Below, in pieces: positions 1 to 5,002 of a stretch of 5,002 bases of DNA. Origin of the DNA: a virus (taxonomy: Duplodnaviria > Heunggongvirae > Uroviricota > Caudoviricetes). Both the position numbers and the translations under genes were made by a program. Below the pieces are notes generated by a model. That model saw only the letters and a program-made list of their open reading frames with translations. It was not told where the DNA came from and searched no databases. Where the stretch lies: IMG/VR virus record IMGVR_UViG_2675903396_000008. One strand, 5' to 3'. Position 1 is the first letter of the stretch; every line of letters starts with the position of its first letter.

Positions 1-9
1 GAGGCGCTT

Positions 10-402
10 ATGGCAAAAGTATTTACACCAGAAGAGCGGGAAGAAGTGAAGGCGCGCATTGTGGAATTCGTGCGCCTGAGCGGACGAGAAACTTTTCGAC
101 AACTGGCAGATAAAACGGGTGTCAGTAAGACCGCTATTCGTTGTTTATCTGGTGCGCTTGCGGCCAGTGGTGATGTCTGGCTCTCTGGTTGCGGGGTATT
201 TCCATCAGAGCAGGCGTATCGCGTATGGCGTAAGACACCGGAGAAGGCTGCTGACCCGACACTGATTCGAAAGTTACCTGACGGAGAAATACGTCGTTAC
301 AACAGACGGCAGAACATAATTTGTCGTGAGTGCCGCCAGAGCGAAGTTATGCAGCGTGTGCTGGCGTTCTATCGGGGAAACTTTCAGGAGGCGGTACTGT
401 GA
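10..402 (+). CDS. Hypothetical phage protein, 130 aa, with a helix-turn-helix-like segment (QLADKTGVSKTAIRCL) and a Cys-containing C-terminal motif (ICRECRQ)
   Basis: ATG at 10 preceded by GAGG at 1-4; open to TGA at 400-402. No stop in frame upstream, so the true start could lie outside the window. Product guessed from motif inspection only. Confidence 0.5.
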   Translation: MAKVFTPEEREEVKARIVEFVRLSGRETFRQLADKTGVSKTAIRCLSGALAASGDVWLSGCGVFPSEQAYRVWRKTPEKAADPTLIRKLPDGEIRRYNRRQNIICRECRQSEVMQRVLAFYRGNFQEAVL

Positions 403-458
403 GTGAATTAGCTATCAGGCTTCAATTGTCGCTGGCATTCGCATCAAAGGAGAATGAG

Positions 459-1043
459 ATGACCACTTTTACAAAAGAGCAGTTAATCAGTCATGTTAGT
501 GAAAATGTAAAGGCGATGAAATTTGCAGTAAAACAGACAGCATTCAAAAATTCTCTCGAGGCAATTGAGTTGGATTTAGCACTGGCCCTTGTTGCTCAGG
601 CTTCGCTGGAAGCAGAGCCCGTGCTTTATATGAATCGATTTACCGGAAAGACATTCTCACTGGAAGAGCAACCCGGTGCTGATAAGGAACCGGAAATATA
701 CGTGCCGCTATATGCTGCCCCGCCAGACAGCGCCGCCATGCTTCAGGCTGGAAACTTTCGGGAAAAGAAGGGTTCGTCAACCAATAATTTTCGGGAAATC
801 TCGGAAACGTCAACCAACTATCCGGTAACTCTGGATGGTTGGATAAGCTGTAGTGAGCGAATGCCGGATGACGGTCAGCACGTAATTATTTTATGTGATG
901 GCGCATTCGTTCTTTATGCGCAATATCGAGACGGTGAGTTTTTTGATGTAGTCCGTGATGGTGATGAATTTTTCGAAACACAGAGCCGCAATGTAACCGA
1001 CTGGATGCCGCTACCAGAACCGCCGCAGGAGGTGCGCCAATGA
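459..1043 (+). CDS. Phage protein, 194 aa, C-terminal region resembling the DUF551 family (WISCSERMPDDGQHVIILCDG...)
   Basis: ATG at 459 with AAGGAG at 447-452 (6-nt spacer); stop TGA at 1041-1043. An alternative in-frame GTG at 399 has AGGAGG at 386-391 and overlaps the upstream stop (GTGA). The ORF-track start at 330 overlaps the upstream gene and is rejected. DUF551 assignment is from memory. Confidence 0.6.
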   Translation: MTTFTKEQLISHVSENVKAMKFAVKQTAFKNSLEAIELDLALALVAQASLEAEPVLYMNRFTGKTFSLEEQPGADKEPEIYVPLYAAPPDSAAMLQAGNFREKKGSSTNNFREISETSTNYPVTLDGWISCSERMPDDGQHVIILCDGAFVLYAQYRDGEFFDVVRDGDEFFETQSRNVTDWMPLPEPPQEVRQ

Positions 1044-1123
1044 ACTGGCCTGAAGCATTTGCAATTACAGGCGTTGCTATGGCTATCGCTTTTTTAGTAT
1101 ATGTTATTTGTCGGTGGGGGTAA
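1040..1123 (+). CDS. Micro-ORF, 27 aa hydrophobic peptide (MNWPEAFAITGVAMAIAFLVYVICRWG), predicted single transmembrane helix
   Basis: ATG overlaps the upstream stop (ATGA at 1040-1043); AGGAGG at 1026-1031; stop TAA at 1121-1123. Too short for statistical gene calling; supported by the SD and coupling geometry. Confidence 0.4.
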   Translation: MNWPEAFAITGVAMAIAFLVYVICRWG

Positions 1124-1158
1124 AAACGTTCGCCGGGATTAACACCAAAGGAGGGAAT

Positions 1159-1263
1159 ATGTCGGATGATATTTTACTGGCAATGGAAGGTGCGCTGGCT
1201 GTTATTGCTGTTGTGGGCGTTTACTGCCTGGTTGTGTTTTTGATGGATCGACTAGGGAACTGA
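1159..1263 (+). CDS. Micro-ORF, 34 aa hydrophobic peptide (MSDDILLAMEGALAVIAVVGVYCLVVFLMDRLGN), predicted single transmembrane helix
   Basis: ATG at 1159 preceded by AAAGGAGGG at 1147-1155; stop TGA at 1261-1263. Confidence 0.45.
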   Translation: MSDDILLAMEGALAVIAVVGVYCLVVFLMDRLGN

Positions 1264-1271
1264 ATTCATTA

Positions 1272-1293
1272 CGATATGGGAATTCCCATATCG
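1272..1293. promoter_or_regulatory. Perfect 22-bp palindrome CGATATGGGAATTCCCATATCG; candidate operator for a dimeric DNA-binding protein, or an RNA hairpin
   Basis: Read directly from the sequence: the two 11-nt halves are exact reverse complements, centred on GAATTC. No T-run follows, so it is not a classical intrinsic terminator. It sits between the second micro-ORF and the hok locus. Confidence 0.5.
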
Positions 1294-1305
1294 GGTAAAA
1301 ACGGT

Positions 1306-1333
1306 TTGCGGTAAAGCGAGAGTTAAGTAGAAT
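1306..1333 (+). promoter_or_regulatory. Candidate promoter for the mok/hok mRNA (-35 TTGCGG at 1306-1311, 16-nt spacer, -10 TAGAAT at 1328-1333)
   Basis: Hexamer match only. A start near 1340 together with the terminator at 1733-1754 would give a transcript of roughly 400 nt, in line with known hok mRNAs. Confidence 0.25.
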
Positions 1334-1394
1334 TGCTGCGGGTGCTTGAGGCTATCTGCCTCGGGCATGAACACCAACGGCAGATAGAGAAAAG

Positions 1395-1460
1395 CCCCAG
1401 TTAACATTACGCGTCCGGCAAGACGCTTAACATTAATCTGAGGCCATATCTATGCTCTAC
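1395..1460 (-). ncRNA. sok: Candidate Sok-like antisense RNA covering the mok translation initiation region; boundaries approximate
   Basis: Inference from hok/sok architecture. A minus-strand promoter-like pair (-35 TTGCCT at plus 1495-1490, 17-nt spacer, -10 TAACCT at plus 1472-1467) would start transcription near 1460, antisense to the mok SD and start codon. I could not identify a terminator. Confidence 0.25.
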
Positions 1461-1664
1461 ACACGTAGGTTAGCCTCTTACGTGCCGAAAGGCAAGGAGA
1501 AGCAGGCTATGAAGCAGCAAAAGGCGATGTTAATTGCCCTGATCGTCATCTGTTTAACCGTCATAGTGACGGCACTGGTAACGAGGAAAGACCTCTGCGA
1601 GGTACGAATCCGAACCGGCCAGACGGAGGTCGCTGTCTTCACAGCTTACGAACCTGAGGAGTAA
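1452..1664 (+). CDS. mok: Mok-like leader reading frame, 70 codons, in frame with hok and ending at the same stop (N-terminal extension MLYTRRLASYVPKGKEKQA)
   Basis: ATG at 1452 is in frame with hok. The extension resembles my recollection of MokC (ML.T.R...K.KEK.AMKQ.K). In hok loci, mok translation is coupled to and required for hok translation. Confidence 0.5.
   Translation: MLYTRRLASYVPKGKEKQAMKQQKAMLIALIVICLTVIVTALVTRKDLCEVRIRTGQTEVAVFTAYEPEE
1509..1664 (+). CDS. hokD: Hok/Gef-family type I toxin, 51 aa (MKQQKAMLIALIVICLTVIVTALVTRKDLCEVRIRTGQTEVAVFTAYEPEE)
   Basis: ATG at 1509 with AAGGAGAAG just upstream; stop TAA at 1662-1664. The sequence matches my memory of E. coli HokD (RelF): single transmembrane helix, conserved C..R and TAYEP motifs. 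Family assignment is high confidence; the exact paralog is from memory. Confidence 0.85.
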   Translation: MKQQKAMLIALIVICLTVIVTALVTRKDLCEVRIRTGQTEVAVFTAYEPEE

Positions 1665-1732
1665 GAGACCAGGCGGGGGAGAAATCCCTCGCCACCTCTC
1701 ATGTGTCAGGCATCCTTAACGCACCCGCACTA

Positions 1733-1754
1733 AACCCGCTTCGGCGGGTTTTTT
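1733..1754 (+). terminator. Rho-independent terminator ending the hok transcript (stem AACCCGC / GCGGGTT, loop TTCG, T6 tail)
   Basis: Hairpin and T-run read directly from the sequence, about 70 nt after the hok stop. Confidence 0.65.
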
Positions 1755-1900
1755 GTTGCGCGCTGAATGCGCAGGGTGAAAAATAACCATATATTTGATT
1801 ATATACACAACAAAAAATAAAAGTCATTGTACCTGCACATTAAATAATCAAATATACGGCGTGAAATAAATATTTTTCAGATTAATATTTTTGTCTCTAT

Positions 1901-2152
1901 GTGGATATAACCGTTTGTACTTATAAACTCGGAGGCATCGTGGAAAAAATAAAGAAACTATTTAGTTGCAAATACGCAGTCATACGTCGTGATGACCTGT
2001 CAGTTATAGTCGAAATGGATTACTTCCCTGAAACCCCAAAATCAATGATGTATCGTAATGGTCGAAAGGCAATTTTTTTACCGATGAGGGTAAGTGACAT
2101 TATGGGAAATGATAAACTGCTGGATGAATTGCGAGTCAGAGCATCCTGTTAG
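1901..2152 (+). CDS. Small hypothetical protein, 83 aa, possibly Rem-like; alternative GTG start at 1940 gives 70 aa
   Basis: ATG at 1901 has no obvious SD; GTG at 1940 has GGAGG at 1931-1935 with a short 4-nt spacer. Stop at 2150-2152. In E. coli K-12 Qin, an 83-aa rem gene lies beside hokD, but I cannot recall its sequence, so the link rests on context and length only. Confidence 0.4.
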   Translation: MDITVCTYKLGGIVEKIKKLFSCKYAVIRRDDLSVIVEMDYFPETPKSMMYRNGRKAIFLPMRVSDIMGNDKLLDELRVRASC

Positions 2153-2223
2153 TATTGGCATTAATTCTGGTATACTACATAACGGGCTGAACACCCATTC
2201 TACTGCGCCAGCGGAGAACTACG

Positions 2224-2823
2224 ATGGCGCATATACAACTGGTCAAACAAACCTCTTCCGGATTACTTCTCCCGGCGACGCCGGAGAGTTGCGATTTTTT
2301 GCATCAAATCAAAATAGGTGAGTGGATACACGCAGACTTTAAGCGTGTGCGTAACTACGCATTCCACAAGCGTTTTTTCAAACTTCTGCAACTCGGATTC
2401 GATTACTGGACTCCGGTCGGTGGGGCGATCACTCCTCGCGAACGAAAACTGGTGTCCGGTTTCGTTGATTATCTGTGTGAATCAGTAGGCCGGGAACATA
2501 CGCCAGCTCTGAGCGAAGCCGCAGAGCAATATCTGAATACAGTTGCGACACGCAGAACCCGAGATACAGCATTGCTAAAGTCGTTTGAGGCTTTCCGCGA
2601 GTGGGTAACCATTCAGGCCGGATTTTACACCGAGCATATTTATCCGGACGGTAGCCGTGGGCGCAGGGCGAAATCCATCTCGTTTGCGAATATGGACGAA
2701 ACCGAGTTTCAGCAGGTTTATAAATCTGTGCTGAATGTACTGTGGAACTGGATCCTGTTCCGTAAATTTTCCTCTCCGGAACAAGTCGAAAATGTGGCCG
2801 CGCAGCTACTGGAGTTTGCGTAA
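2224..2823 (+). CDS. DUF1367-family phage protein, 199 aa
   Basis: ATG at 2224 with GGAG at 2211-2214; stop TAA at 2821-2823 overlaps the next start (TAATG). Family from memory; it conventionally precedes DUF1364 and Q in lambdoid prophages. Confidence 0.65.
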   Translation: MAHIQLVKQTSSGLLLPATPESCDFLHQIKIGEWIHADFKRVRNYAFHKRFFKLLQLGFDYWTPVGGAITPRERKLVSGFVDYLCESVGREHTPALSEAAEQYLNTVATRRTRDTALLKSFEAFREWVTIQAGFYTEHIYPDGSRGRRAKSISFANMDETEFQQVYKSVLNVLWNWILFRKFSSPEQVENVAAQLLEFA

Positions 2824-3113
2824 TGGTGGATTTACGTAAAGCGGCGCGGGGGCAGATGTGCACCGTCAGAATTCCTGGCTACTGCAATCACGATCCGGAA
2901 ACGTCTGTGCTGGCGCATTACCGACTGGCGGGAACGTGCGGAACAGCGATAAAGCCACACGATATGCAGGCAGCGATTGCCTGTAACTCATGCCACGATT
3001 TAATCGACGGGAGAGTAAAAACCAGCGATTACACCAAAGAAGAATTGCGCCTGATGCATGCAGAAGGTGTTTTTCGCACACAAGAGATCTGGAGAAAGGA
3101 CGGTTATTTATGA
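2823..3113 (+). CDS. DUF1364 / YbcO-like Cys/His-rich phage protein, 96 aa, putative nuclease
   Basis: ATG at 2823 overlaps the upstream stop; stop TGA at 3111-3113. Conserved-looking motifs RKAARG, C..RIPG.CN, ETSVLAH, IAC..CHD; length and motifs fit my recollection of DLP12 YbcO. Confidence 0.7.
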   Translation: MVDLRKAARGQMCTVRIPGYCNHDPETSVLAHYRLAGTCGTAIKPHDMQAAIACNSCHDLIDGRVKTSDYTKEELRLMHAEGVFRTQEIWRKDGYL

Positions 3114-3664
3114 TTTACCCAACGAACACAGGAAAAAGCGGAGAGCACCTTCGTCTCACCACGCTGGAAAGTGTCTGGATTCAGGGGAAACTACGTATGT
3201 GGGGGCGCTGGTCGTATATTGGCGGCGGTAAGACGGGAAATATGTTCAACCAGTTGCTGACCTCTAAAAAGCTGACAAAAACGGCAATTAACGAGGCGCT
3301 CCGGAGGATGAAAAAAGCAGGTCTGGACAAACCTAAACTTGAGGCTTTTTTGCGGGATATGATCAACGGCAAGCAAAAAAGCTGGCTGGTGCATTGTACC
3401 GATTCAGAGGCGTTAATAATCGACAGGGTTATTGGTGAAGTACTGGCAGGTTATCCCGGGCTGCTCAATGTTCTGAGTCAGCGTTATGTGGGGCGGGGGA
3501 TGACTAAGCGCAAAATGGCTGAACTGCTGAATGATGCACATCCGGAATGGAGTTTAAGAACCTGTGAAAGACGCATTGAGCATTGGCTAAAGGTGGCAGA
3601 ATTTATTTTGTACAAACCAATGGTTATGGCTTTTGGTATAGAGAAAAAAGTTATTGCTTTTTGA
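3110..3664 (+). CDS. Late-gene antitermination protein Q-like, 184 aa
   Basis: ATG at 3110 overlaps the upstream stop (ATGA); stop at 3662-3664. It sits directly upstream of a terminator and a tRNA cluster, the canonical Q position. The WG.W motif region resembles QuuD-type Q proteins as I remember them. The ORF-track start at 2990 overlaps the upstream gene and is rejected. Confidence 0.6.
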   Translation: MIYPTNTGKSGEHLRLTTLESVWIQGKLRMWGRWSYIGGGKTGNMFNQLLTSKKLTKTAINEALRRMKKAGLDKPKLEAFLRDMINGKQKSWLVHCTDSEALIIDRVIGEVLAGYPGLLNVLSQRYVGRGMTKRKMAELLNDAHPEWSLRTCERRIEHWLKVAEFILYKPMVMAFGIEKKVIAF

Positions 3665-3740
3665 CGTAAAAACTGCTTTAATTCCGGTAAGCTTAGCAAA
3701 GCTGTATCGCGAGGCGAACCAAACGCATGAACTTTACCAG
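3655..3740 (+). promoter_or_regulatory. Candidate late promoter PR' / qut region immediately after Q
   Basis: TTGACG at 3661-3666 overlaps the Q stop, as the -35 of lambda PR' does. I could not find a -10 hexamer at 16-18-nt spacing (the best, TAAGCT at 3688-3693, is 21 nt away), so this rests on position only. Confidence 0.3.
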
Positions 3741-3764
3741 AACCCGCCATTGAGCGGGTTTTTT
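3741..3764 (+). terminator. Rho-independent terminator, tR'-like (stem AACCCGC / GCGGGTT, loop CATTGA, T6 tail)
   Basis: Hairpin and T-run read directly, about 80 nt after the Q stop. Confidence 0.6.
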
Positions 3765-3803
3765 ATTGCGGAATTAATTACGGACCGTTATTATTCTGCT
3801 CCC

Positions 3804-3879
3804 GGCCCTTTAGCTCAGTGGTGAGAGCGAGCGACTCATAATCGCCAGGTCGCTGGTTCAAATCCAGCAAGGGCCACCA
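3804..3879 (+). tRNA. ileZ: tRNA-Ile2 (anticodon CAU, lysidine type), 76 nt with encoded CCA
   Basis: Cloverleaf folded by hand: 7-bp acceptor stem GGCCCTT/AAGGGCC, anticodon loop CTCATAA, T-loop TTCAAAT. Near-identical to my recollection of E. coli ileX, which makes it Ile2 rather than Met. Confidence 0.85.
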
Positions 3880-3888
3880 TATCACATA

Positions 3889-3965
3889 CCGCCATTAGCT
3901 CATCGGGACAGAGCGCCAGCCTTCGAAGCTGGCTGCGCGGGGTTCGAGCCCCCGATGGCGGTCCA
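3889..3965 (+). tRNA. argN: tRNA-Arg (anticodon UCG), 77 nt with encoded CCA
   Basis: Cloverleaf folded by hand: acceptor stem CCGCCAT/ATGGCGG, anticodon stem CCAGC/GCTGG, loop CTTCGAA, T-arm CGGGG-TTCGAGC-CCCCG. The symbol is assigned by its order in the Stx-phage ileZ-argN-argO array and is uncertain. Confidence 0.8.
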
Positions 3966-3978
3966 TTATCGGTATTCT

Positions 3979-4055
3979 GCGTTGTTAGCTCAGCCGGACA
4001 GAGCAATTGCCTTCTAAGCAATCGGTCAGTGGTTCGACTCCACTACAACGCGCCA
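3979..4055 (+). tRNA. argO: tRNA-Arg (anticodon UCU), 77 nt with encoded CCA
   Basis: Cloverleaf folded by hand: acceptor stem GCGTTGT/ACAACGC, anticodon stem ATTGC/GCAAT, loop CTTCTAA, T-loop TTCGACT. Symbol by array order, uncertain. Confidence 0.85.
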
Positions 4056-4068
4056 CACTTATTTTCCA

Positions 4069-4092
4069 GGCTCGCTTCGGCGGGCCTTTTTT
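4069..4092 (+). terminator. Rho-independent terminator after the tRNA cluster (stem GGCTCGC / GCGGGCC with one mismatch, loop TTCG, T6 tail)
   Basis: Hairpin and T-run read directly from the sequence. Confidence 0.55.
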
Positions 4093-4224
4093 GTATCTGC
4101 GCCACGCCCGGCGCATATCAACCACAGAGCCTTTCGGGGGTGAGCTTACGGAGTGGTCAGTGTGACTTTCTCTGTGGGCAGATCGCTCCCGGGCGTTGGC
4201 TCACCCACCCAAAGGAACGTCACG

Positions 4225-4531
4225 ATGTTTGGAATCTTCAAAAAGAAAACCCGCAGAGCGGCAGCGGAAATTAAAAAGTTTGAGAAACGCGATCTGGCAC
4301 AGGCGGTGATTAACGCTGCATACCTGGTGGCCTATGCAGATGGTGAATGCGAGGCATCCGAGAAAGCGAAGATCGAACAGGTCTTACGTAATCAGCCTGC
4401 GTTGTCTGCGTTTACCTCGGAAATTAATGCGATTAGCGCAACTATTATCGGTCAGCTGGATACCAATTTTAAAATTGGTCGTCGTGCCGCGTTACGCGAG
4501 ATTGAGGATGTGAAACACGATACGCGTGAAG
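4225..4531 (+). CDS. TerB-like domain protein, N-terminal 102 aa; the 3' end runs into the N-run
   Basis: ATG at 4225 with AAAGGAA at 4211-4217 (7-nt spacer). The motif AAYLVAYADGECEASEKAKIEQVL looks like the TerB tellurite-resistance fold as I remember it. The ORF-track start at 4153 has no SD. Confidence 0.55.
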
Positions 4532-4588
4532 NNNNNNNNNNNNNNNNNNNNNNNNNNNNNNNNNNNNNNNNNNNNNNNNNNNNNNNNN
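4532..4588. other. Run of 57 N: assembly gap or masked sequence
   Basis: Read directly. Coding frames on the two sides differ, so the N-run length is probably a placeholder. Confidence 0.95.
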
Positions 4589-4789
4589 CGGTGTTCTGGG
4601 TCTTCGTCTGGAGAATCACCTGTGACGGTAAAACTGCGCCTGGCTGTGGCTGCACTCCTGCTGTTTCTGGTGGTGATGGTGGATTTCACCAGCAGAATCA
4701 TGTCGGTGCTGGCGGATGGGGTGCTGGTCTGCGGCATTGTGGTATTGCTGTGGCCGGTGATAAAAAGAAACAGCCTGCATAATGCTTGA
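4589..4789 (+). CDS. C-terminal fragment (67 aa visible) of a membrane protein (...LAVAALLLFLVVMVDFTSRIMSVLADGVLVCGIVVLLWPVIKRNSLHNA); the 5' end lies in the N-run. Probably the same gene as 4225-4531.
   Basis: Frame 2 gives a protein-like hydrophobic sequence ending at TGA 4787-4789. Frame 1, the continuation of the 4225 ORF across the N-run, gives Gly-rich low-complexity sequence and is rejected. Confidence 0.45.
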   Translation, partial: RCSGSSSGESPVTVKLRLAVAALLLFLVVMVDFTSRIMSVLADGVLVCGIVVLLWPVIKRNSLHNA

Positions 4790-4956
4790 TTTTTTTGTTT
4801 GCTGTTTATTAAAAACACTTCTGCATGGTGAATCCCCCTGTGCGGAGGGGCGATCAGCAACCAGGTATATGGGATAATCGCGGATTCAGGTGCTGATACT
4901 GAATTCACCGGGAGGCACCCGGCACCATGCAAGAAAAAGAATGTGCATGCAAACAT

Positions 4957-4980
4957 GCCCCTCTCCGGAGGGGCTTTTTT
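4957..4980 (+). terminator. Strong hairpin with T6 tail (GCCCCTC-TCCG-GAGGGGC-TTTTTT); terminator or attenuator
   Basis: Perfect 7-bp GC-rich stem read directly. The 3' arm GGAGGGG sits 7 nt before the ATG at 4981 and could serve as its SD, suggesting structure-gated translation. Confidence 0.5.
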
Positions 4981-5002
4981 ATGGGTAAAAAATGCCCGAA
5001 TG
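4981..5002 (+). CDS. 5' end of the next gene (MGKKCPN...), truncated by the window; alternative in-frame start at 4927
   Basis: ATG at 4981 follows GGAGGGG at 4968-4974. ATG at 4927 is in frame with GGAGG at 4911-4915, but that reading passes through the hairpin. Too short to identify. Confidence 0.2.

Follow-up and report, generated by a model that had tools for sequence, protein, structure and literature searches.

Three tRNA genes stand in a row in the stretch of viral DNA analysed here (5002 bases, hereafter the window), and the question that they raise is which codons they serve, how they could be transcribed, and whether it is the phage, its host, or a conflict with host defences that accounts for their presence. 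The source of the window is, to judge from its sequence, a Rac-like lambdoid prophage of E. coli. Its genes follow the order DUF977, DUF551, hok/sok, DUF1367 (NinB-like), YbcO, Q-like, the three tRNAs, and TerB/TciA-like, and stx genes are absent from all 5002 bases. E. coli ML35 is 96.7% identical across 94% of the window, and its counterpart region is 7068 bases long as compared with 5002 in the window, with three additional genes in the interval from Q to the tRNAs. Strain 2013C-4974 is 98.1% identical over positions 1-4058.

The Q-like open reading frame matches PHROG 753 ('anti-termination protein Q-like') with an E-value of 2.6e-80 and, in Pfam, DUF1133 with 350 bits and Phage_antitermQ with 32.8 bits (cut-off 26); its product is labelled 'antitermination protein Q' in several phage records. 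From its stop codon to the start of tRNA1 there are 139 bp. In the closest genomes, the 3' side of the cassette is occupied by cargo (tciA, an esterase or DUF6645 gene), followed by holin, lysozyme, and terminase genes. The cassette lies in the late region, 3' of Q and 5' of the cargo and lysis genes. The earlier note had placed the trio directly downstream of Q. The trio is indeed found 3' of the Q-like gene, but a tR'-like terminator and a cassette promoter, both putative, intervene (Table 1).

Table 1. Positions of the tRNA genes, their control elements, and the neighbouring genes in the window.
Feature	Position	Strand	Details
Q-like late-gene antiterminator gene (DUF1133 family)	3110..3664	+	PHROG 753, Pfam, and phage-record annotation
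Putative tR'-like intrinsic terminator, end of Q module	3739..3764	+	hairpin 3739-3762, U-tract to 3764
Putative sigma-70-type promoter of the cassette	3766..3794	+	-35 TTGCGG (3766-3771), 17-nt spacer, -10 TATTAT (3789-3794)
tRNA1, tRNA-Ile2, ileZ equivalent, predicted to decode AUA	3804..3879	+	anticodon CAT (CAU, read as lysidine-AU); Rfam 72.5 bits
tRNA2, tRNA-Arg, argN equivalent, predicted to decode CGA and probably CGG	3889..3965	+	anticodon TCG (UCG); Rfam 55.9 bits
tRNA3, tRNA-Arg, argO equivalent, predicted to decode AGA and AGG	3979..4055	+	anticodon TCT (UCU); Rfam 67.3 bits
Intrinsic terminator closing the cassette	4068..4093	+	stem 4068-4087, T-run 4088-4093; terminator scan
TerB/TciA-like gene (tciA, late-region cargo)	starts 4225		3' of the tRNA trio

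In the window, ARAGORN called three tRNA genes and no more, all of them on the plus strand, and reproduced exactly the coordinates, the order, and the anticodons CAU, UCG, and UCU that had been read from the sequence before; Rfam supports the same calls. The trio is far beyond chance, because its Rfam RF00005 scores all exceed 29, the gathering score, and the E-values lie between 5e-15 and 2e-10. The 3' CCA is encoded by all three genes, and all stem pairs of the standard cloverleaf are canonical in the window copies, with the sole exception of A27.C43 in tRNA1. Single-sequence minimum free energy folding yields no cloverleaf for tRNA1 or tRNA3, which is usual for lone tRNA sequences and was not counted against them. 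Two other Rfam matches over the cassette region, one on the minus strand to 'Plastid-ycf2' (36 bits, gathering score 65.7) and one to 'Trp_leader' (21.8 bits), fall below threshold and were set aside as echoes of the tRNA and of the hairpin of the terminator.

The CAU anticodon of tRNA1 is ambiguous as to the amino acid, and ARAGORN, from the anticodon alone, labels this gene 'Met'. This label was rejected after alignment with ileX, ileY, metT, metU, and the initiator metZ of K-12 (NC_000913.3), since tRNA1 aligns with ileX and ileY and differs throughout from the three Met genes. In the acceptor stem, GGCCCTT/AAGGGCC, it matches ileY at every position, and its anticodon loop and four of the five anticodon-stem pairs are those of ileX and ileY. 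Where both host genes have G27.U43, tRNA1 has A27.C43, and a few further differences fall in the D-loop, position 26, the variable loop, and the T-loop. The acceptor stem contains C4-G69 and C5-G68, which we take to be determinants for the lysidine synthetase TilS. The same gene is labelled tRNA-Ile by RefSeq in E. coli ML35 and 2013C-4974. Because of the grouping with ileX and ileY, the shared stems and loop, and the RefSeq label, it is sound to regard tRNA1 as an Ile2 (lysidine, ileX-type) tRNA rather than a tRNA-Met. The comparison with host ileX thus bears out the Ile2-CAU assignment proposed earlier.

Both tRNA2 and tRNA3 carry A20 and C35, together with G36 in tRNA2 and U36 in tRNA3; these are presumably the identity nucleotides of ArgRS. 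The discriminator of tRNA2 is U73, and the Arg tRNAs of K-12 carry A or G at this position. The K-12 Arg tRNAs used for comparison have the anticodons ACG, CCG, UCU, and CCU but none has UCG, so tRNA2 is without a counterpart among them. tRNA3 has the same anticodon loop as host argU, whereas most of its stem pairs differ, including four of the five in the anticodon stem. The codons read are shared between tRNA1 and tRNA3 on the one hand and host ileX, ileY, and argU on the other.

A trio of this kind is known from Stx-converting phages. From 3764 to 4103 the window is 94-96% identical to Stx2-converting phages (95.6% to AP012536, in which the genes are annotated ileZ, argN, and argO, have the same order and anticodons, and lie directly 5' of stx2A). 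Elsewhere among the Stx2 phages, the genes are labelled tRNA-Ile, tRNA-Arg, and tRNA-Arg. The cassettes of Stx2a_1447 (AP012536), VT2-Sakai (AP000363), Stx2 phage 86, and other Stx phages have the same trio, order, and spacing, and the likeness to Stx2 phages extends over the promoter-like hexamers and the 3' terminator; in both settings the cassette is in the late region, 3' of Q. The alleles of the window differ by a few bases from the Stx2-phage cassette, as in the T-stem of argO (G-C versus C-G). The two settings differ more on either side, where the cassette in the window follows a DUF1133-type Q and a terminator with no DNA methylase gene between, and is followed by tciA (TerB-like) instead of stx2AB. 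The suggested match to the ileZ-argN-argO cluster of Stx phages therefore holds in order, anticodons, and identity. The same cassette has reportedly been described for phage 933W. The names ileZ, argN, and argO, presumably the historical ones, are taken here from the GenBank annotation of AP012536.

The trio was matched in 3061 of 5426 complete E. coli genomes and is full-length in 2577 of them. A single genome has it at up to 13 places, and the O157:H7 and similar genomes listed have it at 6-9. An exact-pattern scan with one genome per species gave four loci (E. albertii, Escherichia sp., and two metagenome bins), a result with little bearing on host range. By sequence comparison, the window trio can be identified as the known and very common ileZ-argN-argO cassette, present in more than half of the complete E. 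coli genomes.

To describe how the cassette is built, the trio and its flanks were taken from 118 related loci, mostly on IMG/VR prophage contigs. The TATTAT hexamer stands at the same offset, 9 nt 5' of tRNA1, in 110 of the 118 loci and is shifted by 1 nt in the other eight; in the window, the 9-nt stretch between it and tRNA1 is rich in G+C. A -35 hexamer beginning with TTG lies 17 nt further 5' in 107 loci, and the spacer between the two hexamers varies across the set. The DNA 5' of the promoter belongs to at least four unrelated contexts, namely the end of a methylase gene, two others, and a terminator as in the window. A consensus scan for promoters and terminators called neither the cassette promoter nor the hairpin at 3739-3762, and the promoter was missed because its -35 hexamer has only three of the six consensus bases. 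Both elements were spotted by eye and then backed, the promoter by conservation across the 118 loci and the hairpin by folding.

On the 3' side, the terminator that closes the cassette has an RNA fold of -14.6 kcal/mol (z = -3.93), and a comparable hairpin with a T-run follows tRNA3 in most related loci. The hairpin at 3739-3762 with its U-tract folds at -13.1 kcal/mol (z = -2.84). It ends the Q module, since phages that have the same Q are homologous to the window only as far as 3762, and it may act as tR'. Homology breakpoints, i.e. mosaic joints, were found at 3762/3764, 4058, and 4103; the homology to Stx2 phages starts at the first of these (3764) and ends at the last. Overall, the cassette looks like a self-contained, mobile unit of promoter, tRNA genes, and terminator. 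A lambdoid moron is an extra gene with its own promoter and terminator. The cassette resembles such morons in its promoter-cargo-terminator layout, in its place between conserved phage modules, and in moving independently of them; it differs in that the cargo is three tRNA genes and not a protein-coding gene.

An own promoter for the cassette is not new, as the start site that drives these tRNAs has already been mapped by dRNA-seq in the Stx2a phage of the Sakai lysogen (PMC7547250). The promoter would likewise be active in the prophage of the window. It was also considered whether the cassette promoter could be the Q-dependent promoter pR'. This was rejected since a methylase gene lies between the tRNA promoter and the DNA upstream of it in Stx2 phages, and the Sakai study lists the tRNA promoter and PR' as separate start sites (PMC7547250). 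For pR' itself, no confident site was found in the window between the stop codon of Q (3664) and the hairpin at 3739, and TTGACG at 3661-3666 is not followed by any acceptable -10 hexamer at a distance of 16-18 nt.

Across the 118 loci, tRNA1 is nearly invariant, its A27.C43 mismatch included. The T-stem pair of tRNA3 that is G-C in the window is C-G in 19 distinct variants, which is a compensatory double change. The invariance of tRNA1 despite unrelated flanks, together with this change in tRNA3, is evidence that the tRNAs of the cassette may be under selection for function. tRNA2 is the most variable of the three; in one sub-lineage it has A.A and A.C stem mismatches and A58G, and the window copy is intact. 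In other relatives the middle tRNA is disrupted or remoulded, and some loci have a truncated argO.

These damaged copies, together with the mosaic joints at the edges of the cassette (3762/3764, 4058, and 4103), would suit a different reading in which decoding is dispensable and the genes serve as a structural or processing element (RNase P or RNase E cuts in the late transcript), as a recombination hot spot, or persist as a decaying hitch-hiker. Such a role seems very unlikely. The anticodon loops, identity nucleotides, and stems are far better conserved than the flanks, and mere processing sites would not need intact anticodons. The compensatory stem change also speaks against it, as does the agreement between the anticodon set and the codon excess of the prophage described below.

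The demand for the codons in question was estimated by counting codons in the annotated genes of the ML35 prophage and in 17 flanking host genes (6372 codons). Per 1000 codons, prophage and host values are 7.8 and 1.6 for ATA (p = 2e-8), 7.4 and 1.6 for AGA (p = 7e-8), 4.4 and 0.3 for AGG (p = 9e-8), and 13.5 and 4.4 for CGG (p = 3e-9). Thus AUA, AGA, and AGG are 5- to 14-fold above the flanking host genes, a baseline of only 17 genes by one related prophage. The genome-wide frequencies of these codons in E. coli are higher than in this host sample, and therefore the real excess is probably closer to 2- to 4-fold. In stx2AB, ATA reaches 36.6 per 1000 codons, or 68% of the Ile codons, and AGA 14.6.

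The pattern of CGA is different. Against 4.1 per 1000 in the host genes, this codon is found at 11.6 in the early genes of ML35 (p = 1.5e-4) and at 13.1 in the open reading frames of the window (p = 9e-4), but at 4.6 in the late genes of ML35, which is not significant; in stx2AB, too, CGA is not enriched. The enrichment of AUA, AGA, and CGA that the earlier note led one to look for is accordingly present for AUA and AGA, and for AGG as well, whereas for CGA it is seen in the early genes and window reading frames but not in the late genes. These counts support codon supplementation for AUA, AGA, and AGG and are less clear for CGA. Within codon supplementation, the UCG tRNA has the least support, because neither the late genes nor stx2AB have an excess of CGA.

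The rare-codon bias could also reflect merely the base composition of mobile DNA, so that the tRNAs would be of little measurable benefit. Gene identity, conservation, cassette anatomy, and codon bias are what was observed here. It appears quite probable that the ileZ-argN-argO cassette is a self-contained unit whose most likely effect is to raise the supply of rare tRNAs for translation.

The mechanism can be potentially described as follows. The cassette has the Q/tR' module on one side and tciA, the cargo gene of the late region, on the other. C34 of tRNA1 would be converted to lysidine by host TilS, which would allow the reading of AUA, while Arg-UCG would read CGA and CGG and Arg-UCU would read AGA and AGG. 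These codons are rare in E. coli and their tRNAs scarce, and the prophage and its cargo use them several-fold more. In the lysogen, the tRNAs would be supplied from the own promoter of the cassette, and after induction an extra supply may come from Q-modified late transcription through both terminators. The outcome would be efficient translation of the prophage, of cargo such as Stx, and of other horizontally acquired genes. In the prophage of the window, the tRNAs would be expressed, aminoacylated, and, in the case of tRNA1, modified to lysidine, and their benefit to translation would follow this scheme.

The bias 5' of the cassette is at least as strong as that 3' of it, which fits expression from the own promoter and not late read-through alone. 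The host may even be the main beneficiary. In that case the cassette would be a form of lysogenic conversion of translation, in which constitutive expression from up to 13 copies raises the rare-tRNA pools and helps AT-rich acquired genes to be translated. The conserved promoter and terminator would allow expression without induction of the prophage, and the start site was mapped in the Sakai lysogen (PMC7547250). The high copy number in EHEC genomes (6-9 places in those listed, 13 at most) and the top enrichment of rare codons in early and cargo genes, not in late genes, point in the same direction. However, the cassette is always in the late region of a phage by lysis and cargo genes, which a phage-centred role fits at least equally well, and lysogenic conversion with the host as main beneficiary is considered unlikely. 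It overlaps with the rare-tRNA supply preferred here and differs from it only in the beneficiary.

The anticodon set had also been taken as a hint at defences that the phage had to withstand. According to this explanation, the cassette replaces host tRNAs destroyed by anticodon nucleases, PARIS, retron or Septu effectors, or colicins, and its anticodons record the defences met. In other systems, T5 among them, phage tRNAs do counteract defences that cleave tRNAs (PMC10264068, PMC11555353, PMC11464382, PMC12409363), and the window trio resembles the tRNA clusters of the virulent phages T4 and T5 in being phage-encoded tRNA genes in a tight array. In T5, however, the tRNAs are altered at the site where the nuclease cuts, and the set comprises Lys, Thr, Asn, and Tyr (PMC12409363, PMC11555353), whereas the window trio consists only of rare-codon isoacceptors and has host-like anticodon loops in tRNA1 and tRNA3. 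A limited check of the literature on tRNA-targeting phage defence gave no nuclease against Ile2 or Arg tRNAs; the targets described are Lys, Thr, Asn, and Tyr. For tRNA-Arg, the same literature reports a single nuclease, colicin D, which is a bacteriocin.

Features of the tRNAs themselves bear on both sides of the defence explanation. None of the host Arg tRNAs compared shares the anticodon of tRNA2, and tRNA3 is unlike argU in four of the five anticodon-stem pairs. Against this, both Arg tRNAs retain A38 and G39, the loop and four of the five stem pairs of tRNA1 are those of ileX and ileY, and the loop of tRNA3 is that of argU. Evasive phage tRNAs typically have substitutions in this loop, and tRNA1 and tRNA3, with their host-identical loops, show none. 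As the anticodon stem of tRNA3 differs in most pairs, a nuclease that recognises the stem is still conceivable. The codon bias already accounts for the anticodon set. Overall, the anticodon-nuclease suggestion is not supported for this trio, given the host-identical loops of tRNA1 and tRNA3 and the defence targets in the literature covered, and it appears decidedly improbable as the reason for the cassette.

A sister cassette in E. coli E1624 has Ile2, Lys(UUU), Thr(UGU), and Gly(UCC), and its 'Lys' tRNA is an argN body with a different anticodon arm (UUU). Sister E. coli prophage cassettes carry Lys(UUU) and Thr(UGU), which favours a defence role inasmuch as both are prime targets of the PARIS nuclease AriB. 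However, the Thr gene of E1624 is identical to host thrU, so that it would not be resistant to cleavage either, and the Gly gene is one base off glyT; both look like captured host genes and not resistant variants. From these cassettes it might be speculated, with considerable doubt, that the family is a modular 'tRNA insurance' in which the Ile2 slot is fixed and the later slots are swapped or remoulded under tRNA-targeting defences. If this were true, the Arg-UCG and Arg-UCU genes of the window would represent one state of an array whose members are exchanged under pressure from defences, and not a pure codon supplement.

The analysis confirms the observation and bears out the identification, and the element itself is already known. 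Lambdoid and Stx prophages carry the trio as a textbook accessory; standard pipelines annotate it, and the majority of pathogenic E. coli genomes have it. The modest additions of this study are the description of a promoter-to-terminator unit with joints at its edges, the finding that the rare-codon excess of early and cargo genes is as strong as that of late genes, and the recognition of the UCG tRNA as the weakest link. In practice, the cassette is of use as a landmark for the start of the late-region cargo slot, which is filled by stx in Stx phages and by tciA here. The prophage of the window shares this cargo-slot architecture with Stx phages.

In the first tRNA of the cassette, the prophage Ile2, the topmost pair of the anticodon stem is the mismatch A27.C43 (window 3830 and 3846), whereas the pair at this position in the host ileX and ileY genes is G27.U43. 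The mismatch is unchanged throughout the 118 related loci examined. The Ile2 gene and its promoter are also identical in two sister cassettes, from E. coli E1624 and phage PPompW, in which the later slots are different (see the table). The 'Lys' tRNA of these sister cassettes has the acceptor, D, and T arms of argN with a different anticodon arm, and it has C33 in place of U33. The Thr gene of the E1624 cassette matches host thrU base for base, and the Gly gene of that cassette differs from glyT by one nucleotide. The PARIS nuclease acts mainly on Lys(UUU) and Thr(UGU).

Features located in the window and in sister cassettes
Feature	Location	Content or basis	Score
hok/sok-type type I toxin-antitoxin locus	window 1340-1664	Rfam sok + Pfam Hok/Gef	
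isrK-like match (Hfq-binding sRNA family)	window 1673-1754	sub-threshold	31.2 bits vs gathering score 50
STnc100 (Rfam sRNA family)	window 4794-4986	full-length match	145.8 bits vs gathering score 47
Sister cassette, E. coli E1624	L017 (related contig) 2501-2810	Ile2, Lys(UUU), Thr(UGU), Gly(UCC)	
Sister cassette, phage PPompW	L015 (related contig) 2532-2772	Ile2, Lys(UUU), Arg(UCU)	

In one sub-lineage of the cassette, comprising variants v1, v8, v14, v18, v22, v42, v48, and v52 of the related loci, argN (UCG) has A.A and A.C stem mismatches and the T-loop change A58G, with the anticodon loop kept. The middle tRNA of E. coli A30 is 81 nt long and is annotated as 'tRNA-OTHER'. It appears that the UCG tRNA is decaying in some prophages. 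A deletion shared by seven related loci fuses the argO anticodon arm directly with a stretch similar to window ~4678-4711. In these loci argO lacks its 3' half, both the terminator and tciA are gone, and the junction maps near window 4678, close to the annotated tciA/tciB boundary. The E. albertii locus, in which ARAGORN finds two tRNAs only, is probably among the seven.

The E. coli-type trio was also found on two contigs labelled 'uncultured Collinsella sp.' (L014) and 'MAG: Proteobacteria bacterium' (L011), whose bins are of unrelated or vague taxonomy; both contigs most likely come from Escherichia prophages and were misbinned.

Downstream of the cassette, the TerB/TciA-like gene beginning at 4225 cannot be read continuously in the window, and 57 consecutive N (4532-4588), standing for masked or unknown bases, lie inside it. 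The STnc100 match, in the prophage late region, is positioned 3' of the tciA/tciB-like genes and terminates with a strong terminator (4957-4974); in E. coli ML35, an STnc100 match lies directly 5' of a SASA-family esterase gene. Upstream, the hok/sok-type locus is made up of a match to the Rfam sok model (1340-1514, 111.7 bits) and a Hok/Gef family ORF (1509-1664, Pfam E = 2.9e-23), which is named hokD in the annotation of the closest genome. The isrK-like match starts directly 3' of hok and could be either a distant relative or a chance match.

Homology breakpoints against different phage and prophage groups fall at window 3762/3764, 4058, and 4103, and so cluster where the tRNA cassette begins and ends. 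Position 3762 is the end of the Q module, homology to Stx2 phages extends from 3764 to 4103, and the match to strain 2013C-4974 stops at 4058, three nucleotides 3' of argO. The two ends of the cassette thus act as mosaic joints.
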